From an uncultured bacterium (GTDB taxonomy: Bacteria; Patescibacteriota; Minisyncoccia; Phycocordibacterales; UBA9973): DNA of 45,132 bases. Numbering within the stretch: the first letter of the stretch is position 1; every line of letters starts with the position of its first letter. The notes under the pieces are model-generated. The model had not been told where the DNA came from. It saw only the letters and a list, made by a program, of their open reading frames with translations, and did no database searches. Shown here one piece after another: positions 6,181 through 44,734 of the stretch. The translations under genes and the position numbers were made by a program. Where the stretch lies: NCBI GenBank assembly GCA_903834665.1, contig CAILJY010000070.1, positions 1 through 45,132 on the forward strand, in the 5' to 3' direction.

Positions 6181-6313
6181 TCAAGAAGAGGACTAGAACC
6201 TTACAGGTTCAGTATACCTTTCATATTTTTGAAAATATTAATTTTCAAAAATGTATTCAAGGTTTTCAAGATCCTCTCCCGCAAGCCAAGTAGTTGGCTT
6301 GCTCTGGGCACCA
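6181..6313 (+). ncRNA. tRNA-Leu-partnered structured element (copy B of the tRNA-end-mimic family)
   Basis: Same module order as the 137-nt repeats at 17679-17952: tRNA-Leu-derived arms, hairpin gaac-CTTACAG-gttc, a long AT hairpin, hairpin gcaagccaa-gtag-ttggcttgc, and an end of tctgggcacca. Strand is assigned by analogy with copy A. Confidence 0.45.
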
Positions 6314-6358
6314 TATAAAAAAACTATCTTAAAGATAGTTTTTTTATATGGTGCCCAG
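6304..6358. terminator. Perfect 27+1+27 palindrome with A7/T7-flanked core (bidirectional terminator) overlapping the tRNA-Leu 3' end
   Basis: ctgggcaccatataaaaaaactatctt-a-aagatagtttttttatatggtgcccag. The right arm, 6349-6358, is the tRNA-Leu acceptor 3' strand plus CCA. Confidence 0.7.
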
Positions 6359-6433
6359 GAGAGGACTTGAACCTCCAAGGATTGCTCCACTAGTTCCTAA
6401 GACTAGCGCGTATACCAATTCCGCCACCTGGGC
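6349..6433 (-). tRNA. tRNA-Leu (anticodon TAG), class II long variable arm, CCA encoded
   Basis: The reverse complement gcccaggtggcggaattggtatacgcgctagtcTTAGgaactagtggagcaatccttggaggttcaagtcctctcctgggcacca folds as a cloverleaf with anticodon loop cuUAGga. Confidence 0.93.
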
Positions 6434-9094: not shown

Positions 9095-9123
9095 ATAATT
9101 GATTGAGATCGAAATGATAATAA

Positions 9124-9567
9124 CTATTTTGCTTTTTCTAAAACTTCTTTTTCTTCATTTGATAATTCAAAATCAGATTTTCCGTTAATAATTGGCTTAG
9201 CAAATATACTCATTCGATCGCGAGCGTATAAACTAGACATTACAACTCCATTACCTTCATCATTCAAAAAAGCTATAGCAAAACTTTGATTGCCTCCTGC
9301 ATCTACAAAAGGGTTAAATCTTATTGTTTCAATACTTCGAATAGATTTGTTGAGCTTGGAGTCTACTTCTGCGAGGTGTTTATCAATTTTTAATTGTGTT
9401 TCATCTAATTTATTTATTTTTTCACCGACAATAACTATCATTTCTTCTAAGTTTCGAGCTTTTGTCCCCGCAAAGATTTTCTTTAATCGGTACTCGATCA
9501 TTAATATCCAAAATAAGACAATGATAACAACGGCTGAAATTATATAAAATAAAATAGTAGTATTCAT
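9124..9567 (-). CDS. DUF4446-family membrane-anchored protein
   Basis: 147 aa with an N-terminal TM helix, a coiled-coil region, and RFNPFVDAGGNQSFAIAFLNDEGNGVVMSSLYARD, which is typical of DUF4446. Confidence 0.65.
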   Translation of the reverse strand: MNTTILFYIISAVVIIVLFWILMIEYRLKKIFAGTKARNLEEMIVIVGEKINKLDETQLKIDKHLAEVDSKLNKSIRSIETIRFNPFVDAGGNQSFAIAFLNDEGNGVVMSSLYARDRMSIFAKPIINGKSDFELSNEEKEVLEKAK

Positions 9568-9662
9568 AACTTAAAGGAGTATATACCAATAAGGGTTTTT
9601 TTACAATGCTGTTGTGTTTAAATTAATTTTTAAAATTAAACATAGGATGATATAGTAATAGT

Positions 9663-10967
9663 ATGTTATTAATAAAGAAAAATATATATTTGGATAATGC
9701 TGGAGCAACTAAAGTAGATAAAGATGTTCGAAAGATCATGGCTTTTTCGGAAAAGATGTTTTTTGCAAACCCGAGTGCTATTTATAAAGACGGAGTAGAA
9801 GTTCGAAATAAGATAGAGGAAGAAAGAACAAAAATAGCCAAACAGATAAATGCTCATAATGATGAGATTATTATAACTTCTAGCGGGACAGAAAGTGATG
9901 CCATGGCAATTTTGGGAACAATTAATAATTATGAATTAAGAATTAAGAATGAAAAGTTAGAATATAAAATTCCACACATTGTAACTTCTAAAATAGAACA
10001 CCCTGCAGTCATGGAAAATTGTCGCTATTTGGAAGATAATGGCAGGGCAGAAGTAACGTATGTTGGAGTTGATAAAAATGGCCTAATTAATTTAGAAGAA
10101 TTAAAAGACTCTTTAAAAGAGAATACAATTCTAGTTTCTATTATGTATGCCAATAATGAGATTGGAACGATTGAACCAATAGAAGAAATTGCAAAAATAA
10201 TACGACATTTTAAGAAAATAAAACAGGGAAAAGAAAATAATTTTTTTGGGTTCTCGGACGAGGGAGGAAGAGGGGCCAGACCCTTCAATAATCATTTTGT
10301 TTTCCCTATTTTTCATACTGATGCGTGTCAGGCTATGAATTATTTATTTACAGAAAATATAGAAAAATTAGGAGTTGATCTGTTGTCTTTTAATAGTTCA
10401 AAAATTTATGGACCAAAAGGAATAGGAATTCTTTATAAAAAACGTAATGTTGATATTTGCCCTTTATATATGGGAGGTGGGCAAGAATTTGGTTTGCATT
10501 CTGGGACAGAAAGTATTTCTCTAATAAAAGGTATATCTCTTGCTTTGGAGATAACAAATAAGATTAAAGAGAAAGAAAATAAAAGACTTACTAAAATTCG
10601 CGATTATGCAATTGATAAATTATTATCTTTATCAGGATTGTATGGATATAAGATAATTCTAAATGGTGGTAGAGAAAATAGATTATCAAACAATGTTAAT
10701 ATTTCAATATCAAATATTTCAAGTGAACTTTTAGTAATTGAATTATCAGCTCAAGGGATTTTTGTTTCAGAGAAAAGTGCTTGTAAAAGTAATGATGATG
10801 GTAAATCTTATGTCATAGATGCAATAAGAAAAGTATGTCCGAGAGATGGGGTTGTTGCAGATGGTTCTTTACGTATTTCATTTGGAAGAGACAATAAGAT
10901 GAGGGATGTGGACGTATTATACAAGGGATTAAGGAAAATTTTAGAGAAATATAAAAACTGGAAATAG
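9663..10967 (+). CDS. Cysteine desulfurase (class V aminotransferase, NifS/IscS-like) carrying an in-frame 81-bp insertion
   Basis: 434 aa. Motifs SSGTESDAMAILG, HTDACQAM and PLP-lysine motif SSKIYGPKGIGILY. The GC-rich insertion encodes ...GKENNFFGFSDEGGRGARPFNNHFVFP... Confidence 0.85.
   Translation: MLLIKKNIYLDNAGATKVDKDVRKIMAFSEKMFFANPSAIYKDGVEVRNKIEEERTKIAKQINAHNDEIIITSSGTESDAMAILGTINNYELRIKNEKLEYKIPHIVTSKIEHPAVMENCRYLEDNGRAEVTYVGVDKNGLINLEELKDSLKENTILVSIMYANNEIGTIEPIEEIAKIIRHFKKIKQGKENNFFGFSDEGGRGARPFNNHFVFPIFHTDACQAMNYLFTENIEKLGVDLLSFNSSKIYGPKGIGILYKKRNVDICPLYMGGGQEFGLHSGTESISLIKGISLALEITNKIKEKENKRLTKIRDYAIDKLLSLSGLYGYKIILNGGRENRLSNNVNISISNISSELLVIELSAQGIFVSEKSACKSNDDGKSYVIDAIRKVCPRDGVVADGSLRISFGRDNKMRDVDVLYKGLRKILEKYKNWK
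10226..10306. repeat. 81-bp GC-rich-core palindromic element inside the cysteine desulfurase CDS
   Basis: Core ggttctcggacgagggaggaagaggggccagacc matches 32/34 positions of the dus copy at 28950-28983. Flanks gggaaaagaaaataatt and aataatcattttgttttccc are inverted repeats. Length is 27 codons. Confidence 0.7.
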
Positions 10968-17654: not shown

Positions 17655-17959
17655 AACTGAGTTTTCGAATTCTACACGCGAGACAAGCAGTTTATTTCGT
17701 TGGGTAGGAATTTCGATCCTTACAGGATCAGTACACCTTTTCCATTCGCGAGTACGCTCATATGGAAAAGGTTTTCGAATCCTACACGAAAGCCAATAAA
17801 TTGGCTTTCTCTCGGCGAGACAAGTAGTTTATTTCGTCGGGTAGGAATTTCGATCCTTACAGGATCAGTACACCTTTTCCGTTCGTGATTACACTCACAT
17901 GGAAAAGGTCTTCGAATCCTACACGAAAGCCAATAAATTGGTTTTCTCTCGGCGAGACA
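17655..17959 (+). ncRNA. Tandem array (2.3 x 137 nt) of the tRNA-end-mimic structured element, tRNA-Tyr-specific arms
   Basis: Units 17679-17815 and 17816-17952 differ at 9 of 137 positions. Truncated copies lie at 17661-17678 and 17953-17959. Stem substitutions are compensatory or give G-U pairs only on the plus strand. Confidence 0.6.
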
Positions 17960-17960
17960 T

Positions 17961-18000
17961 ATATAAAAATAACACAGCTGAAGCTGTGTTATTTTTATAT
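17961..18000. terminator. Perfect 18-4-18 palindromic bidirectional terminator between the repeat array and tRNA-Tyr
   Basis: atataaaaataacacagc-tgaa-gctgtgttatttttatat. Confidence 0.7.
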
Positions 18001-18002
18001 TG

Positions 18003-18085
18003 TGCGCCGGGTAGGATTCGAACCTACGTAGGCCGAAGCCGTTTGATTTACAGTCAAATGCAATTGACCACTCTGCCACCGACGC
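18003..18085 (-). tRNA. tRNA-Tyr (anticodon GTA), class II variable arm, no encoded CCA
   Basis: Reverse complement gcgtcggtggcagagtggtcaattgcatttgactGTAaatcaaacggcttcggcctacgtaggttcgaatcctacccggcgca. Confidence 0.93.
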
Positions 18086-25876: not shown

Positions 25877-27184
25877 ATGTTAGATATTAAATTTATTCGT
25901 GAAAATAAAGAGGTGGTCAAAGAAGGGGCCAAGAAAAAACACATTGAAGTTGATATTGATAATTTACTTTCTATCGATGAAAAAAGATTAGAGATTCTTT
26001 CACGTGTTGAATTTTTAAGAGGAGAACAAAATAAAGTTAGTATTTCAATGGGCCAAAAAATAGAAGATTCTTTACGCCTCCAGCTTATTGAAGAGATGCG
26101 TTTAGTCAAAGATGAGTTAAAAGAAAAAGAAGAAGAACTGCGTAACGCTATTATAGAGTGGCAAGGTTTAATGTTAAAAATACCAAATATACCATCAGTT
26201 GATACTCCAATTGGTCCTGACGACTCTGCAAATGTTGTTATTCGTCAATGGGGTGAAAAACCAGAATTTTCTTTTAATCCAAAAGAACATAGTGAACTAG
26301 GTAAAGCTTTGGGGATTATAGATACTGAGACAGCAGGAGAAGTGGCTTCTTCCCGTTTTGCTTATTTAAAAGGGGATTTAGTTTTATTACAATTTGCTTT
26401 AATTCAGATGTGTTTGGAAATTTTAACAAATGAGGAAACACTAAAACAAATAGCAGAAAAATCAAATATTTCTATAAATGTTTCAAAATTTATACCAGTT
26501 GTTCCTCCTGTTTTTGTTAGACCATTGGTACAAGTTAAAATGGCAAGATATATGACTCCTGAAGAACATTATATTTTTCCTAATGACGATCTGATGCTTA
26601 TTGGAAGTGCTGAACATACTCTTGGTTCTATGCATATGGATAAAATTTTTGATGAGAAAGATCTTCCTATTAGATATGCTGGTTATTCAACTGCCTTTAG
26701 AAGAGAAGCTGGTGCTGCGGGGAAAGATACTAGTGGTATTTTACGCCAGCATCAATTTGATAAATTAGAGATGGAAGTTTTTTCCCTCCCTGAAAATTCC
26801 ATGCAAGAACAAAATTTTCTTGTGGCTATTCAAGAATATGTTTTACAAACTTTGAAATTACCATATCAAGTAGTTTCAGTTTGTACCGGAGATATGGGTT
26901 TCCCCGATACTAGACAGATAGATATTGAGACATGGATGCCAGGGCAAAATAAATATAGAGAAACTCATAGTTCAGATTCAACTGGTGGATTCCAAGCTCG
27001 TAGGTTGAATACTAGAGTTAGAAGAATTGATGGCAAGATAGAACCTGTTCATATGAATGATGCTACTGTCGTAGCAATAGGAAGAATGTTAATAGCAATT
27101 ATGGAAAACTATCAACAAGAAGATGGTACTATAAAAATTCCTGAAGTTTTGCAAAAATATTTAGGTAAAGATATTATTTCGTAA
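25877..27184 (+). CDS. serS: Seryl-tRNA synthetase
   Basis: 435 aa with an N-terminal coiled-coil arm and class II aaRS motifs (FRREAGAAGKDTSGILRQHQF). Confidence 0.93.
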   Translation: MLDIKFIRENKEVVKEGAKKKHIEVDIDNLLSIDEKRLEILSRVEFLRGEQNKVSISMGQKIEDSLRLQLIEEMRLVKDELKEKEEELRNAIIEWQGLMLKIPNIPSVDTPIGPDDSANVVIRQWGEKPEFSFNPKEHSELGKALGIIDTETAGEVASSRFAYLKGDLVLLQFALIQMCLEILTNEETLKQIAEKSNISINVSKFIPVVPPVFVRPLVQVKMARYMTPEEHYIFPNDDLMLIGSAEHTLGSMHMDKIFDEKDLPIRYAGYSTAFRREAGAAGKDTSGILRQHQFDKLEMEVFSLPENSMQEQNFLVAIQEYVLQTLKLPYQVVSVCTGDMGFPDTRQIDIETWMPGQNKYRETHSSDSTGGFQARRLNTRVRRIDGKIEPVHMNDATVVAIGRMLIAIMENYQQEDGTIKIPEVLQKYLGKDIIS

Positions 27185-28066: not shown

Positions 28067-28142
28067 GCAGAATTATTAAAATTTTTCCCGTTTTACCCAG
28101 GGTACTGGGCTCCGACACGGATAAAAATTTCAATAATTCTGC
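28067..28142. repeat. 76-nt extended imperfect hairpin element with GC-rich apex (E1)
   Basis: Arms gcagaattattaaaattttt and aaaaatttcaataattctgc. Apex cccag-ggta-ctggg. Shares the 10-mer gacacggata with the element at 42903-42999. Confidence 0.45.
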
Positions 28143-28161
28143 TTCACAGTTTAATTAAAGT

Positions 28162-29262
28162 ATGAAAAATATTTTTGAAAAATTAGAAAAACCATTTTTT
28201 TGTTTAGCCCCAATGGCCGATGTAACCGATGCGGCTTTTAGAAGTATTATTTGTAAATATGGTAAACCAGATATTTTTTGGACAGAATTTGTTTCGGCTG
28301 ATGGTCTTTCTAGCCCTGGAAGAGAAATCTTAAAAGATAATTTGATTTTTAATAAAAAAGAACATCCTATTGTTGTTCAGCTTTTTTCTTCAAATATAGA
28401 TAAAATGCGCGAGGCCTCAAAATATTGTGCATCTCTTGGTTTTGATGGGATTGATATCAATATGGGGTGCCCAGACCGTTCTGTAGAAAAACAAGGTGCT
28501 GGAGCTGCAATGATAAAAGATATGAAAAAAGCAGGGGAAATAATCCAAGCTGTAAAAGATGGAATAAAAGATTTTAAAAAAAAGGGAAAGACAAAAAATA
28601 TTTCTATATCAGTAAAAACTAGGATTGGATACAATAAAAATCAAATCAAGGAATGGATTCCATTTCTATTATCATGTGGCATTGATGCTTTGACTATTCA
28701 TGCTCGTACACGAAAAGAGATGTCTCTCGTCCCAGCCAGATGGGAGCATATTAAAGAAGTTGTTGAAATTAGAAATAAAATGGGAGTTAAAACGAAGATT
28801 ATAGGGAATGGTGATGTTAGGGATTTAAAACATGGGTATGAACTTGCAAAAGAAACAGGTTGTGACGGAGTGATGATTGGGAGAGCGATATTTGGTAATC
28901 CGTGGTTGTTTACTAATAGTAGGAATGGAATTAATTCAAAATTTTCTCAGGTTCTCGGACGAGGGAGGACGAGGAGCCAGACCAGTTCAAAAATTTTAAT
29001 TAATTCCACTCCTACATTAAAAGAAAAATTAAAAGTTATGTTAGAGCATACAAAATTATTTGAAAAAATACTTGGTAAACATAGGAATTTTGCTATTATG
29101 AAAAAACATTTTAAAGCTTATGTTAATGGTTTTCCTGCCCGCCCTCACGATAGTTCGGGAGCAGGCGGGATTGGAACTAAAGAATTACGCGTAAAACTTA
29201 TGGAAACAAAAAATGCGAAAGAAGTAGAGAAAATAGTTTCTAATTTTCTCAAAAATCATTAA
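28162..29262 (+). CDS. dus: tRNA-dihydrouridine synthase with two GC-rich in-frame insertions
   Basis: 366 aa. FMN-binding TIM-barrel motifs (LAPMADVTDAAFR, GCDGVMIGRAIFGNPWLF). Confidence 0.88.
   Translation: MKNIFEKLEKPFFCLAPMADVTDAAFRSIICKYGKPDIFWTEFVSADGLSSPGREILKDNLIFNKKEHPIVVQLFSSNIDKMREASKYCASLGFDGIDINMGCPDRSVEKQGAGAAMIKDMKKAGEIIQAVKDGIKDFKKKGKTKNISISVKTRIGYNKNQIKEWIPFLLSCGIDALTIHARTRKEMSLVPARWEHIKEVVEIRNKMGVKTKIIGNGDVRDLKHGYELAKETGCDGVMIGRAIFGNPWLFTNSRNGINSKFSQVLGRGRTRSQTSSKILINSTPTLKEKLKVMLEHTKLFEKILGKHRNFAIMKKHFKAYVNGFPARPHDSSGAGGIGTKELRVKLMETKNAKEVEKIVSNFLKNH
28927..29007. repeat. 81-bp GC-rich-core palindromic element inside the dus CDS
   Basis: ggaattaattcaaaatttt ... aaaattttaattaattcc are inverted arms with one indel. 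The core matches the copy at 10226-10306. It is translated as GINSKFSQVLGRGRTRSQTSSKILINS, a different frame from the other copy. Confidence 0.7.
29134..29172. repeat. 39-nt GC-rich hairpin-forming in-frame insertion in dus
   Basis: cctgcccgccctcacgatagttcgggagcaggcgggatt (26/39 G+C) with cccgcc/ggcggg pairing. It encodes PARPHDSSGAGGI between GF and GTKELR. Confidence 0.5.
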
Positions 29263-32779: not shown

Positions 32780-33065
32780 CAAAATTAAGAGAAACGCAAT
32801 TTTGCGTGGGGAAGAAAATGCGATTACGCATTTTCGCCAGGGATTCGGAGACCCTGAGTATATCGCACGGAGCTTTAGCGAGTACGATACGAAGGGTGTA
32901 CAGAATCTGTAAGATTCGAAAAGTGTAATCACGGTCCCTGTCAGGGATTCGAAAGACTTTTCCTTGCCGAAGGCGGAAAAGTACCCGCGACCGTAGGGCG
33001 AGAAATTCCCTGTCCCAATCTGTAAGATTCGAAAAGTGTACTCACGGTCCATGTCCCAATTTGTA
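32780..33065 (-). ncRNA. One full, one rearranged and one partial copy of the tRNA-end-mimic element with tRNA-Gln-specific arms
   Basis: Read on the minus strand, the module order equals that of the tRNA-Tyr copies. 32904-32942 and 33017-33055 match at 37/39 positions. Hairpin gaaaatgcg-atta-cgcattttc lies at 32814-32835. Confidence 0.5.
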
Positions 33066-43046: not shown

Positions 43047-44015
43047 ATGTTTATAGATGAAATAAAATTTTTTGCAAAAGCTGGCCACGGAGGAGACGGG
43101 GTTGTTCGTTGGCGCCGTGAGAAATTTATAGATAAAGGAGGTCCGAACGGTGGAGATGGGGGAAGAGGTGGAGATATATATGCTTTGGCTATTTCTGATA
43201 TTCATTTACTTTCAAAATATAAACACAAAAAAGAATTTGAAGCCGAAAGTGGTTTTGCAGGAGCTGGTGGAAGTAGACATGGTAAAGATGGCAAAGATTT
43301 AATAATTGAATTACCTGTTGGTTCTATTATTACAAATATTGAAAGTGGAGGAAGCGTTTCTCTTAATCAAGCAGGACAAAAAGAATTATTATTGAAAGGC
43401 GGAGTTGGAGGGTATGGTAATGAACAATTTAAAAGTTCTATTAATACAACTCCTGAAAAAGCGACAAAAGGCAAAATTGGAGAAAATGGAAATTTTAAAA
43501 TAGAGCTTGAGCTTTTTGCTGATGTTGGATTAGTTGGATTGCCAAATGCAGGTAAATCTTCACTTTTGAATGCTGTGACAAATGCTCAAGCAAAAATCGG
43601 AAGTTATCAATTTACAACTCTTGACCCAAATTTAGGAGATTTTTTTGGTTATACGATTGCCGATATTCCTGGCCTTATTGAAGGGGCTTCTGATGGTAAG
43701 GGATTAGGAATTAAATTTTTAAAACATATTAAAAGAACTAGAATGTTGGCTCATTTAGTTTCTCTTGATAATAGTGAACCAGTTAAAGTTTATAAACAAA
43801 TTCGTAAAGAACTTGGAGTTTACGACGAGAGTCTTCTCGAAAAAGAAGAAATAATTATTTTAACAAAAACTGATTTAATAGAAGATCAAAAAAAGATTGA
43901 AAAAATTAAAAAAGAATTTATAAAAATTGGTAAACCAGTTTTTACACTTTCCCTTTATGATGATGCTTCTGTGAAAAAGTTAATAGATGATCTTGTAAAA
44001 TTATTGAGAAAATAA
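43047..44015 (+). CDS. obg: GTPase Obg/CgtA (short, no C-terminal TGS-like domain)
   Basis: 322 aa with a Gly-rich Obg fold (GGPNGGDGGRGGDIY) and G domain GLPNAGKSSLLN. Confidence 0.92.
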   Translation: MFIDEIKFFAKAGHGGDGVVRWRREKFIDKGGPNGGDGGRGGDIYALAISDIHLLSKYKHKKEFEAESGFAGAGGSRHGKDGKDLIIELPVGSIITNIESGGSVSLNQAGQKELLLKGGVGGYGNEQFKSSINTTPEKATKGKIGENGNFKIELELFADVGLVGLPNAGKSSLLNAVTNAQAKIGSYQFTTLDPNLGDFFGYTIADIPGLIEGASDGKGLGIKFLKHIKRTRMLAHLVSLDNSEPVKVYKQIRKELGVYDESLLEKEEIIILTKTDLIEDQKKIEKIKKEFIKIGKPVFTLSLYDDASVKKLIDDLVKLLRK

Positions 44016-44039
44016 AAAAATCCCTGAAGGGATTTTTTT
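44014..44039. terminator. Bidirectional terminator after obg
   Basis: aaaaaaatccct-gaa-gggattttttt. Confidence 0.7.
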
Positions 44040-44042
44040 ATT

Positions 44043-44208
44043 TTTGTGCCCCGTGAGGGAATCATGATTACATGTTCGGTCACTCATAATTTTCTGGAGA
44101 AAATTTGTGCGACCCCGACTCAGCTCGTCAGCCTCCGTCTTTCGATTTTTTTAAACATACATTTGGGTATGTTTAAAAATCACAGATTTTGTGCTTCGCA
44201 AAAATTTG
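44043..44208 (+). repeat. Degenerate tRNA-end-mimic element bounded by 21-nt direct repeats of the tRNA-Lys 3' end
   Basis: tttgtgccccgtgagggaatc occurs at 44043-44063 and 44205-44225. Internal hairpins lie at 44088-44105 and 44153-44174, with a T-loop-like tctttcgatt at 44138-44147. Confidence 0.45.
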
Positions 44209-44354: not shown

Positions 44355-44675
44355 ATGAATGAAAAATTAGATAATTTTGGACTTAAGCCAGTTAATGAAC
44401 CAATTGATGAATCAATAATAGAAGTTCCTTCTTTTGAAGAGTTAGAGATTTTAAAAGAAACTGATTTTGATGAATATATTAAATGGATAGATTATATTGC
44501 AAAAACAAAAGAGGAAGAACATATAAAAGAATTAGTAGAACAAGAAAGAATAGAGAAATTAAATAAAGATAATAAAGATAATAAAGATAATAAAGATAAT
44601 AAAGAAAATGAACCAACTGGTTTTAAAGAGGATAGAGAGGATAGAAAAAAAAGAAATATGTATGGACAAAATTAA
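44355..44675 (+). CDS. Hypothetical acidic protein with (NKD)n repeat
   Basis: 106 aa. A 9-nt tandem repeat (aaagataat, about 4.5 copies) at 44565-44606 encodes NKDNKDNKDNKDNKEN. Confidence 0.45.
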   Translation: MNEKLDNFGLKPVNEPIDESIIEVPSFEELEILKETDFDEYIKWIDYIAKTKEEEHIKELVEQERIEKLNKDNKDNKDNKDNKENEPTGFKEDREDRKKRNMYGQN

Positions 44676-44680
44676 TTAAT

Positions 44681-44705
44681 AAAACCCCTTAATATAAGGG
44701 GTTTT
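44681..44705. terminator. Bidirectional terminator
   Basis: aaaacccctta-atat-aaggggtttt. Confidence 0.65.
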
Positions 44706-44734
44706 ATTAATCCTCAGATTAGTTATTATAGGGG

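Follow-up and report, generated by a model that had tools for sequence, protein, structure and literature searches.

In-frame palindromic insertions with a conserved GC-rich tip in housekeeping genes of Paceibacterota

A 45,132-nt stretch of DNA from an uncultured bacterium of the UBA9973 lineage (positions 1-45,132 of contig CAILJY010000070.1, assembly GCA_903834665.1, hereafter called the window) carries, inside the dus gene for a tRNA-dihydrouridine synthase, an in-frame palindromic segment with a GC-rich center. Judging from sequence comparison, this segment is shown to be an insertion and a member of a large family that is spread across many genes, reading frames, and orientations. We think that it is probably a selfish DNA hairpin element of Paceibacterota, akin to transposable elements of the miniature inverted-repeat kind (MITEs) and Rickettsia palindromic elements (RPEs), which is translated as a disordered loop. 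The family is apparently widespread in ultra-small bacteria of the Paceibacterota and the candidate phyla radiation (CPR), and apparently undescribed: in the literature covered, we came across no account of it when looking for MITEs or palindromic elements of CPR, Patescibacteria, or Parcubacteria.

Results

The window is AT-rich (~31% G+C) and holds two copies of the element, both on the + strand. In dus, the full palindrome measures 97 nt (28919..29015) and includes the 81 nt (28927-29007) that the original prediction, made from the letters of the window, had delimited as a palindromic element. The palindrome was found by an arm search and scores 73.7 bits (E = 3.6e-17) with R1, a covariance model built from 79 copies of the family. 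Bases 28919-28936 pair with 28998-29015 at 17 of 18 positions and 28938-28945 with 28990-28997 at 8 of 8, the arms being complementary, as had been claimed, save for one base, a bulged C at 28937. The left AT-rich arm (28919..28947) encodes ..SRNGINSKFS, and the right AT-rich arm (28987..29015) encodes SKILINSTPT, its outer end overlapping a conserved Pro codon of the host gene. Between them sits the hairpin tip (28948..28986; 39 nt, 13 codons, QVLGRGRTRSQTS), which includes a conserved 34-nt GC-rich core, GGTTCTCGGACGAGGGAGGACGAGGAGCCAGACC, at 28950-28983. The element begins five residues (TNSRN) after the GNPWLF motif, rather than directly behind it as first stated.

The sister copy lies in a cysteine desulfurase gene, where a palindrome of ~93 nt (~10220..10312; R1, 67.9 bits) pairs at 20 of 23 positions and contains the core at 10249-10282 with two mismatches (32/34). 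No chance match to the core was seen in 100 shuffles, and the recurrence of the core and the coordinates of the dus copy are as originally described. In an ungapped comparison over 81 nt, the two copies are identical at 54 positions, with 32/34 in the core, merely 12/23 in the left arm, and 10/24 in the right arm; the core alone is therefore common to both. The length of 81 bp and the identical position of the core within it, which had been offered as evidence of a shared element, follow from an arbitrary choice of borders; the palindromes are 97 and ~93 nt long. What is shared is the core, as predicted, within a GC-rich tip of ~39-45 nt and a few flanking bases, and not an 81-bp element, the arms being locus-specific. 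The dus 81-mer folds with -22.9 kcal/mol (z = -3.3); the fold energy of the desulfurase copy is unremarkable by itself (z = -1.0). The cores are indeed read in different frames of two different genes, as ..VLGRGRTRSQT.. in Dus and ..GFSDEGGRGARP.. (FSDEGGRGARP) in the desulfurase. A search of the 45-kb window with R1 yielded no further copy of the family.

Dus (366 aa; 28162..29262, + strand) matches Pfam PF01207 (E = 1e-59) and the Dus homologues in the Protein Data Bank (PDB), and the element occupies the linker between its TIM barrel and its C-terminal helical domain. The class-V aminotransferase/cysteine desulfurase (IscS/NifS type, 434 aa; 9663..10967, + strand) matches Pfam PF00266 in two stretches. 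IscS homologues in the PDB align with its residues 5-181 and 216-427, leaving the element (182-215) unmatched, and neither the Dus nor the IscS homologues in the PDB have the inserted segment. When Dus was modeled by AlphaFold2 with an orthologue alignment, a confident barrel and helical domain were obtained (mean predicted local distance difference test score, pLDDT, of 82), with pLDDT falling below 50 exactly at residues 253-281, which are those of the element, and at residues 326-337, a second small insert. The same Dus protein (P0001) is found as identical copies on 10 contigs from four sources, which rules out an assembly chimera, and is identical to a protein annotated in metagenome bins of Candidatus Paceibacterota.

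The orthologous sites show what was inserted. We surveyed the 120 best Dus homologues, all Paceibacterota-like, and could classify the stretch between GNPW.F and KLKV in 108 of them: 50 are empty, 24 have this core, 5 have arms only, and 29 have other inserts. About half of these closest orthologues thus lack the segment, as an insertion had led one to expect. The stretch is 10-12 aa long in empty alleles (consensus FSGKIPTVKE) and 36-42 aa in those with this core; the corresponding desulfurase lengths are 24 and 47 aa. Compared with empty orthologues, Dus has a net gain of ~29 aa (87 nt) and the desulfurase one of ~23 aa (69 nt); for the desulfurase, orthologous copies occur in L066, L087, and many desulfurase homologues. 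With the insert masked, the Dus relatives nearest to carriers are often empty or carry another family. TruB, Tgt, UvrC, LigA, and RNase HII have flipped copies in the same loops, and a decayed copy is seen in L011. One Dus homologue, P0063, has a deletion between 7-nt direct repeats that by its sequence clearly looks like a slippage event. Across Dus, IscS, TruB, Tgt, UvrC, LigA, and others, a site may be empty, filled in either orientation, reduced to arms, or filled by another GC-core family. As far as orthologue comparison reaches, sites are therefore shown to turn over among empty, filled, flipped, tip-less, and other-family states.

Other insert families were seen at the same Dus and desulfurase sites in P0022, P0031, P0040, P0079, P0111, P0127, P0131, P0155, P0237, P0241, and others. 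They include ISKSTNISLLGNFSARASRPAQVF, DPSLRPPLTKGRVGEG (with a GACCCCTCCC...GGGGAGGGGTC palindrome in L019), APQGLASGSLEARPFPA, and VPWERDGASTRNFSAEKYPC, while ARTVLKRASPRTVLN occurs in both Dus and desulfurase. This suggests a superfamily of GC-core hairpin elements that may have permissive or hot-spot sites in common.

The family extends far beyond these two genes. In a scan of genomes, CPR matches were found in a TruB-like gene, in the third frame of PolA, and in antisense orientation within UvrC. Metagenomes were scanned with the pattern CTCGGACGAGGG-N5-20-GCCAGAC; the copy counts that follow are among the matches listed. At least 84 distinct copies lie in AT-rich contexts in many independent assemblies, next to 54 chance matches in GC-rich DNA. 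Open reading frames (ORFs) of 100 aa or more contain 46 of the 84 in sense orientation; another 14 run antisense within ORFs, so that 60 (~71%) are intragenic with the frame kept, and the remaining 24 have no long ORF around them. No genic copy shifts the frame of its host or brings a stop codon into it; the sense frames are used 23/11/11 times and the antisense frames 10/1/1 times. The consensus core, read directly, is stop-free in all six frames. Those copies outside ORFs that we inspected occupy spacers of ~100 nt, with a separate co-directional gene on each side rather than the halves of a split gene. Recurring hosts are Dus, IscS, TruB, Tgt, MnmA, TsaD, an RlmI-like methyltransferase, PheT, UvrC, LigA, RNase HII, and PolA, and the element is mostly found in the same inter-motif loop of a given host, at times in the opposite orientation. 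R1 added 13 copies in the collected loci, some of them diverged or decayed, one of which occupies the spacer immediately upstream of dus in a relative whose dus site is empty. A family copy in L097 (5016-5113) has its core interrupted by a small GC-rich segment, CCTGCCCGAACAGACGGGG, which is a nested insertion within the tip. The core pattern had 0 matches in viral contigs, leaving a phage vector unsupported. Together, the empty orthologues, the at least 84 AT-rich contexts, and the presence in many genes, frames, orientations, and spacers bear out the original claim of a discrete insertion element rather than convergent coding sequence.

The element is built of a conserved GC-rich tip carried on two AT-rich inverted arms of ~17-36 bp whose sequence is locus-specific. 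The tip consensus is (C)AGGTC-CTCGGACGAGGG-(AGGACGAGGGG or GGGACGGGAGCCGGTG)-CCAGACC-A, 34-38 nt long. Conservation ends ~6-11 nt from the core, leaving (C)AGGTC...GACC(ATT), and information content is at background within ~10-20 nt. Inverted arms are present in every copy, and their sequence is common only within subfamilies; in dus, the mid-arm AATTAATTCAAAATTTTCT is common to all copies, while the outer arm varies by lineage. The arms covary strongly, 80.4% of cells being paired versus 54.9% after shuffling and 34-53% in slid controls. Double-change cells number 496 versus 170 expected, a value reached in 0 of 500 shuffles. Among arm mismatches, 53 are G.T and 82 are A.C. Since covariation is strictly Watson-Crick and G.T is not favored over A.C, the complementarity belongs to a DNA duplex and not to one RNA strand. 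On the strength of this covariation, the palindrome is shown to be a DNA-level feature.

That finding bears on the idea that the hairpin acts in RNA, being removed from or bypassed in the mRNA (the peptide concerned is VLGRGRTRSQTSSK), as an intervening sequence or a translational-bypass element would be, or serving regulation or processing within the transcript. The RNA would fold into a long, stable hairpin, and orientation is biased ~3:1 toward sense in genes (46:14, listed copies) and 10:3 in co-directional operon spacers. However, all genic copies are in frame and stop-free, which would be needless if the hairpin were removed or bypassed; antisense copies persist in essential genes; and the arms show no G.U enrichment. 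Rfam gave no match at the element with gathering thresholds, and in a permissive search the best hits were generic miRNA-precursor hairpins at 26 bits versus 80 required. We therefore regard an RNA-level element as very unlikely.

The tip is conserved in its nucleotides. In orthologous host genes, four-fold sites are saturated, with identities of 0.36-0.58, whereas core identity is 0.79-0.91. When dus orthologues were collected by protein sequence only, 29 of 34 four-fold comparisons within the tip were identical (85%), and 19 of 29 four-fold third positions in the tip are G/C, compared with 23% in the host gene. Because the tip is preserved at four-fold sites although those of the host are saturated, it must be maintained at the nucleotide level, and these site comparisons show it, within the orthologues compared, to be held constant there. 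Host and element distances in dus correlate weakly (Mantel r = 0.16, p = 0.06), and the dus pattern could reflect either repeated gains or a single old insertion followed by many precise losses. We rejected a recent horizontal co-transfer of the dus allele, since the flanks are no more similar and the dus gene of the window shows no mosaic pattern. A hypothesis based on replication strand was also rejected, because skew, whether of GC in the flanks or at four-fold sites, goes with the host gene and not with the orientation of the core.

Conservation of these four-fold sites speaks against the convergent origin of a Dus-specific motif selected at the protein level. Within the dus clade, there is fair conservation of the peptide INSKFSQVLGRGRTRGQTSSKILIN, but the same nucleotides are read in three frames and antisense in other genes, a distribution over many genes that already contradicts a peptide motif, and disorder is predicted for the segment. 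Against contamination or an assembly chimera stand the many independent assemblies and sources that carry the element. Neither unrelated orthologues sharing the 27 residues nor contamination was found, and we consider a convergent motif or an artefact extremely unlikely.

A more serious alternative starts from the same nucleotide-level conservation. The element might be a domesticated, host-beneficial cis-acting DNA element, its folded hairpin with the tip forming a recognition site kept by selection or molecular drive, in a system like that of repetitive extragenic palindromic (REP) sequences and their associated tyrosine transposases (RAYTs), as a site for a protein of the nucleoid, of replication, or of repair, or as a signal for DNA uptake or recombination. 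Coding DNA would tolerate it, the tip being open in each of the six frames. Speaking for this are a GC-rich tip kept against strong AT bias and saturated synonymous divergence, flanks without a co-transfer signal, the use of both orientations, strict Watson-Crick arms indicating a DNA hairpin or cruciform, and intergenic subfamilies shaped like bidirectional terminators (A-run, GTC-core-GAC, T-run). Uptake sequences of Pasteurellaceae likewise occur in all frames and both orientations, in permissive protein regions. On the other hand, density is low, at about 1 per 50-70 kb outside ascertained sites, and presence is patchy, half of the sites being empty in close orthologues. Some copies are decayed or lack the tip, several unrelated GC-core families use the same sites, and orientation is independent of strand-composition skew. 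A beneficial cis element thus seems unlikely to us.

Whole hairpins appear to have moved. Near-identical arms are found at different loci, as in L014 (intergenic) and L100, or in L011 (a 907-aa ORF, putative UvrA) and L032 (UvrC), and a AAAGCTCC... subfamily occurs at no fewer than 10 loci. Further subfamilies have the same inner arms at unrelated loci (AAAGCTCCTCTTCGCAAGG..., CAAATTATATTCTGAAAAAAG..., and ...CTCATTCTCAGG). Since both whole hairpins and inner arms recur at different loci, the element can move with its arms. Roughly half of the copies have the form cTTC|palindrome|TTCg, which resembles a 3x3 bubble with the stem going on outside. Simple derivation of the arms from the target was rejected, because empty Dus alleles and spacer-less relatives have no arm-like sequence of comparable length.

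Some sites could nevertheless be read as insertions of the tip alone. In the arms-only P0080 (L141), TTTTCT|TCAAAAA stands where the window has TTTTCT[39 nt]TCAAAAA, so that, with 1 nt of ambiguity at the junction, exactly the 39-nt tip (28948-28986) is missing. In P0123, the closest desulfurase relative, the site holds nothing but a short hairpin (GGAGAAAAAGA-TAGTTT-TCTTTTTCC), and in P0148 a different GC hairpin lies inside the right arm of this family. Accordingly, only a GC-rich cassette of ~39-45 nt might be mobile, integrating, flipping, and excising in the loops of pre-existing AT-rich (quasi-)palindromes, with arms that are largely target-derived or locally extended, which would explain why arms are locus-specific and why different core families use the same sites. 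This would also fit the collapse of information content ~6-11 nt from the core, the overlap of palindromes with host codons that are conserved (for Pro in Dus and for Phe-His in the desulfurase), the many core-less AT-rich hairpins in the window, and a desulfurase net insertion (69 nt) smaller than its palindrome (93 nt). Yet net insertions of 69-87 nt exceed the tip, so inner arms came in too, and neither the empty Dus alleles nor the spacer-less L016 and L019 have a substantial palindrome at the site. In addition, whole hairpins with arms of ~20-27 nt recur at unrelated loci, and the slippage deletion in P0063 indicates that arms-only states can be derived rather than ancestral. We judge a cassette confined to the tip to be quite unlikely. 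A related scheme, which we entertain only tentatively, is that of a hairpin-tip replicator, in which a dedicated trans-acting enzyme, recognizing a ~40-nt, six-frame-open, GC-rich tip in folded single-stranded DNA, would insert it into the centers of AT-rich hairpins or quasi-palindromes and would flip and excise it, several core families would compete for the same housekeeping-gene loops, and, within coding sequences, a long-term symbiosis like that of REPINs (mobile hairpins made of REP sequences) with RAYTs, or molecular drive, would conserve the tip while host divergence is saturated.

In the selfish element that we favor, the whole hairpin would be moved by a trans-acting enzyme recognizing the folded tip; as a guess, this might be an HUH-type or recombinase-type enzyme acting on single-stranded DNA. 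In gene-dense genomes, only insertions that keep the frame, carry no stop, and land in permissive loops or short spacers would survive. The arms would stay perfect through hairpin-templated correction, by arm-to-arm conversion or template switching, the tip would flip by exchange between arms, and it would be lost by hairpin-stimulated slippage. In dus, the ribosome would read through the element, adding ~27-29 residues of disordered loop that would play no role in catalysis.

Several observations weigh against such an element. If selfish and vertically inherited, it should decay, yet the tip is kept in dus orthologues with saturated synonymous sites, and its conservation alongside variable arms is the reverse of what classical MITEs and REPINs display. 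The flanks give no sign of recent co-transfer, third-position identity being 0.58 near the element (≤30 codons) versus 0.59 far from it. Homogenization of cores within genomes is not significant (within- versus between-contig core distance, permutation p = 0.41); agreement in the short or long core form within 11 of 14 contigs is only suggestive of it. Outside the protein-ascertained dus and desulfurase sets, use of an exact core pattern as the metagenome filter inflates apparent core conservation. No clean target-site duplication was found, identical 3-nt flanking repeats occurring in only 9 of 79 copies, and no transposase or parent element turned up, although no search was aimed at a parent insertion sequence.

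The window contains additional hairpins and repeats. The second in-frame insert in dus (29137-29172, 36 nt; palindrome 29138-29169) is GC-rich (CCCGCC...GGCGGG), encodes ARPHDSSGAGGI, splits the usual GF-(D/P)GAKELR motif, has a predicted pLDDT below 50, and, among the collected orthologues, is common only to P0007/L014. Just upstream of dus, an intergenic hairpin (28067-28143) has the same build, with AT-rich arms of ~20 nt and a different GC-rich core, CCCGTTTTACCCAGGGTACTGGGCTCCGACACGG, which has no match in the collected loci. The orthologous spacer contains a copy of the present family in L014, two other GC-core hairpins in L020, and an AT-only palindrome in L018, while L016 and L019 are spacer-less. 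Long core-less AT-rich hairpins were found at 6304-6358, 17959-18001, 44007-44045, and 44673-44714; among them are a hairpin directly bordering tRNA-Tyr and an inverted repeat, perfect over 27 nt around a 1-nt loop, that reaches into the end of a tRNA-Leu gene (6349-6433). Their role may be that of terminators, or they may be relatives of the element that lack its tip. Adjoining tRNA-Tyr (18002-18085) are two tandem 137-nt units, 93% identical and with internal inverted repeats (17678-17951). Downstream of tRNA-Gln, at 32904-33055, a 39-nt direct repeat (95% identical, 113 nt apart) surrounds a GC-rich stretch (32960-33017) and could be an unannotated RNA or repeat element.

Two larger features concern the surroundings of the copies. 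At ~9100-9700, gene orientation and cumulative GC skew both switch, from minus-strand genes with negative skew to plus-strand genes with positive skew, which is compatible with a replication origin; the desulfurase copy is ~600 bp from this switch. The seryl-tRNA synthetase (SerRS) gene at 25877-27184, in an otherwise syntenic block, encodes a protein with ~45% identity to the SerRS of most relatives (L014, L016, L018, L019, L020, and L143) and 86% identity to that of L141, and it looks, from these identities, like a replacement by a different SerRS type.

Discussion

The closest known analogues of this family are Rickettsia palindromic elements and mitochondrial GC clusters. RPEs are short palindromic repeats of ~100-150 bp, lying in frame in unrelated housekeeping genes of a small AT-rich genome and translated as an extra peptide at structurally permissive positions, each family being described as encoding one conserved peptide in a single frame, and they are not known to have a transposase (Ogata et al. 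2000, via PMC10969869). MITEs that lie in frame have been described along with them (PMC10969869). The family described here is likewise a palindromic repeat found in frame in unrelated protein-coding genes, with 60 of the 84 listed copies so placed and the dus insert predicted to be disordered. It differs in that a tip of 34-38 nt is conserved in three sense frames (23/11/11) and antisense (10/1/1) instead of one peptide in one frame, in that the arms are locus-specific yet perfectly complementary, and in that the host lineage is unrelated. We know of no sequence relationship between this family and RPEs.

Fungal mitochondrial GC clusters such as GC42 are mobile GC-rich palindromic mini-elements of very AT-rich compact genomes (PMC4478555). 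Together with double-hairpin elements and byps, they show the same presence/absence polymorphism at homologous sites, exchange by recombination, and constraint on the hairpin, and some lie in coding or rRNA genes (PMC4478555). However, GC clusters are mostly intergenic with short AG/TAG target duplications (PMC4478555), whereas the family here is bacterial, keeps the frame, and has long AT-rich arms around its GC-rich part. Byp elements break the reading frame and the ribosome skips them, in contrast to the frame-keeping copies described here. Translational bypass, as in T4 gene 60 and the mitochondrial byps, needs a stop or a frameshift, whereas both window copies and all genic copies are stop-free and in frame.

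Classical MITEs and REPINs are also hairpin repeats, non-coding, of ~75-100 bp, and present in many copies per genome. They conserve their termini or arms and vary in the middle, while the present family does the reverse, its inverted repeats not being conserved among copies as the terminal repeats of classical MITEs are. Nor are its copies extragenic like REP sequences, ~71% of those listed being intragenic. REPINs persist over the long term in dependence on an HUH enzyme acting in trans. Signal sequences for DNA uptake (USS/DUS) are short motifs present at ~1 per kb genome-wide; here, there are two copies in the 45-kb window and ~1 extra copy per 48 kb in the collected loci. The family is thus of the RPE and GC-cluster kind, with four differences: a conserved tip on variable arms, the use of several frames and both strands, deep conservation of the tip, and competition between families for sites.

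Bacteria of the CPR/Patescibacteria have tiny gene-dense genomes in which mobile DNA is little known. In-frame mini-hairpins in genes for tRNA modification, DNA repair, and aminoacyl-tRNA synthetases would explain many unexplained short insertions in CPR proteins, and the family would be a second, independent example of the phenomenon known from the RPEs of Rickettsia. Such elements matter for annotation, since they give rise to spurious "lineage-specific motifs" and to GC-rich islands within AT-rich genomes. They also offer a clean system for studying how palindromes are kept up, since conservation of the tip, covariation of the arms, and flipping or loss of the tip are all visible at orthologous sites. 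Finally, the conserved tip provides a handle for finding the enzyme that moves or maintains these elements.

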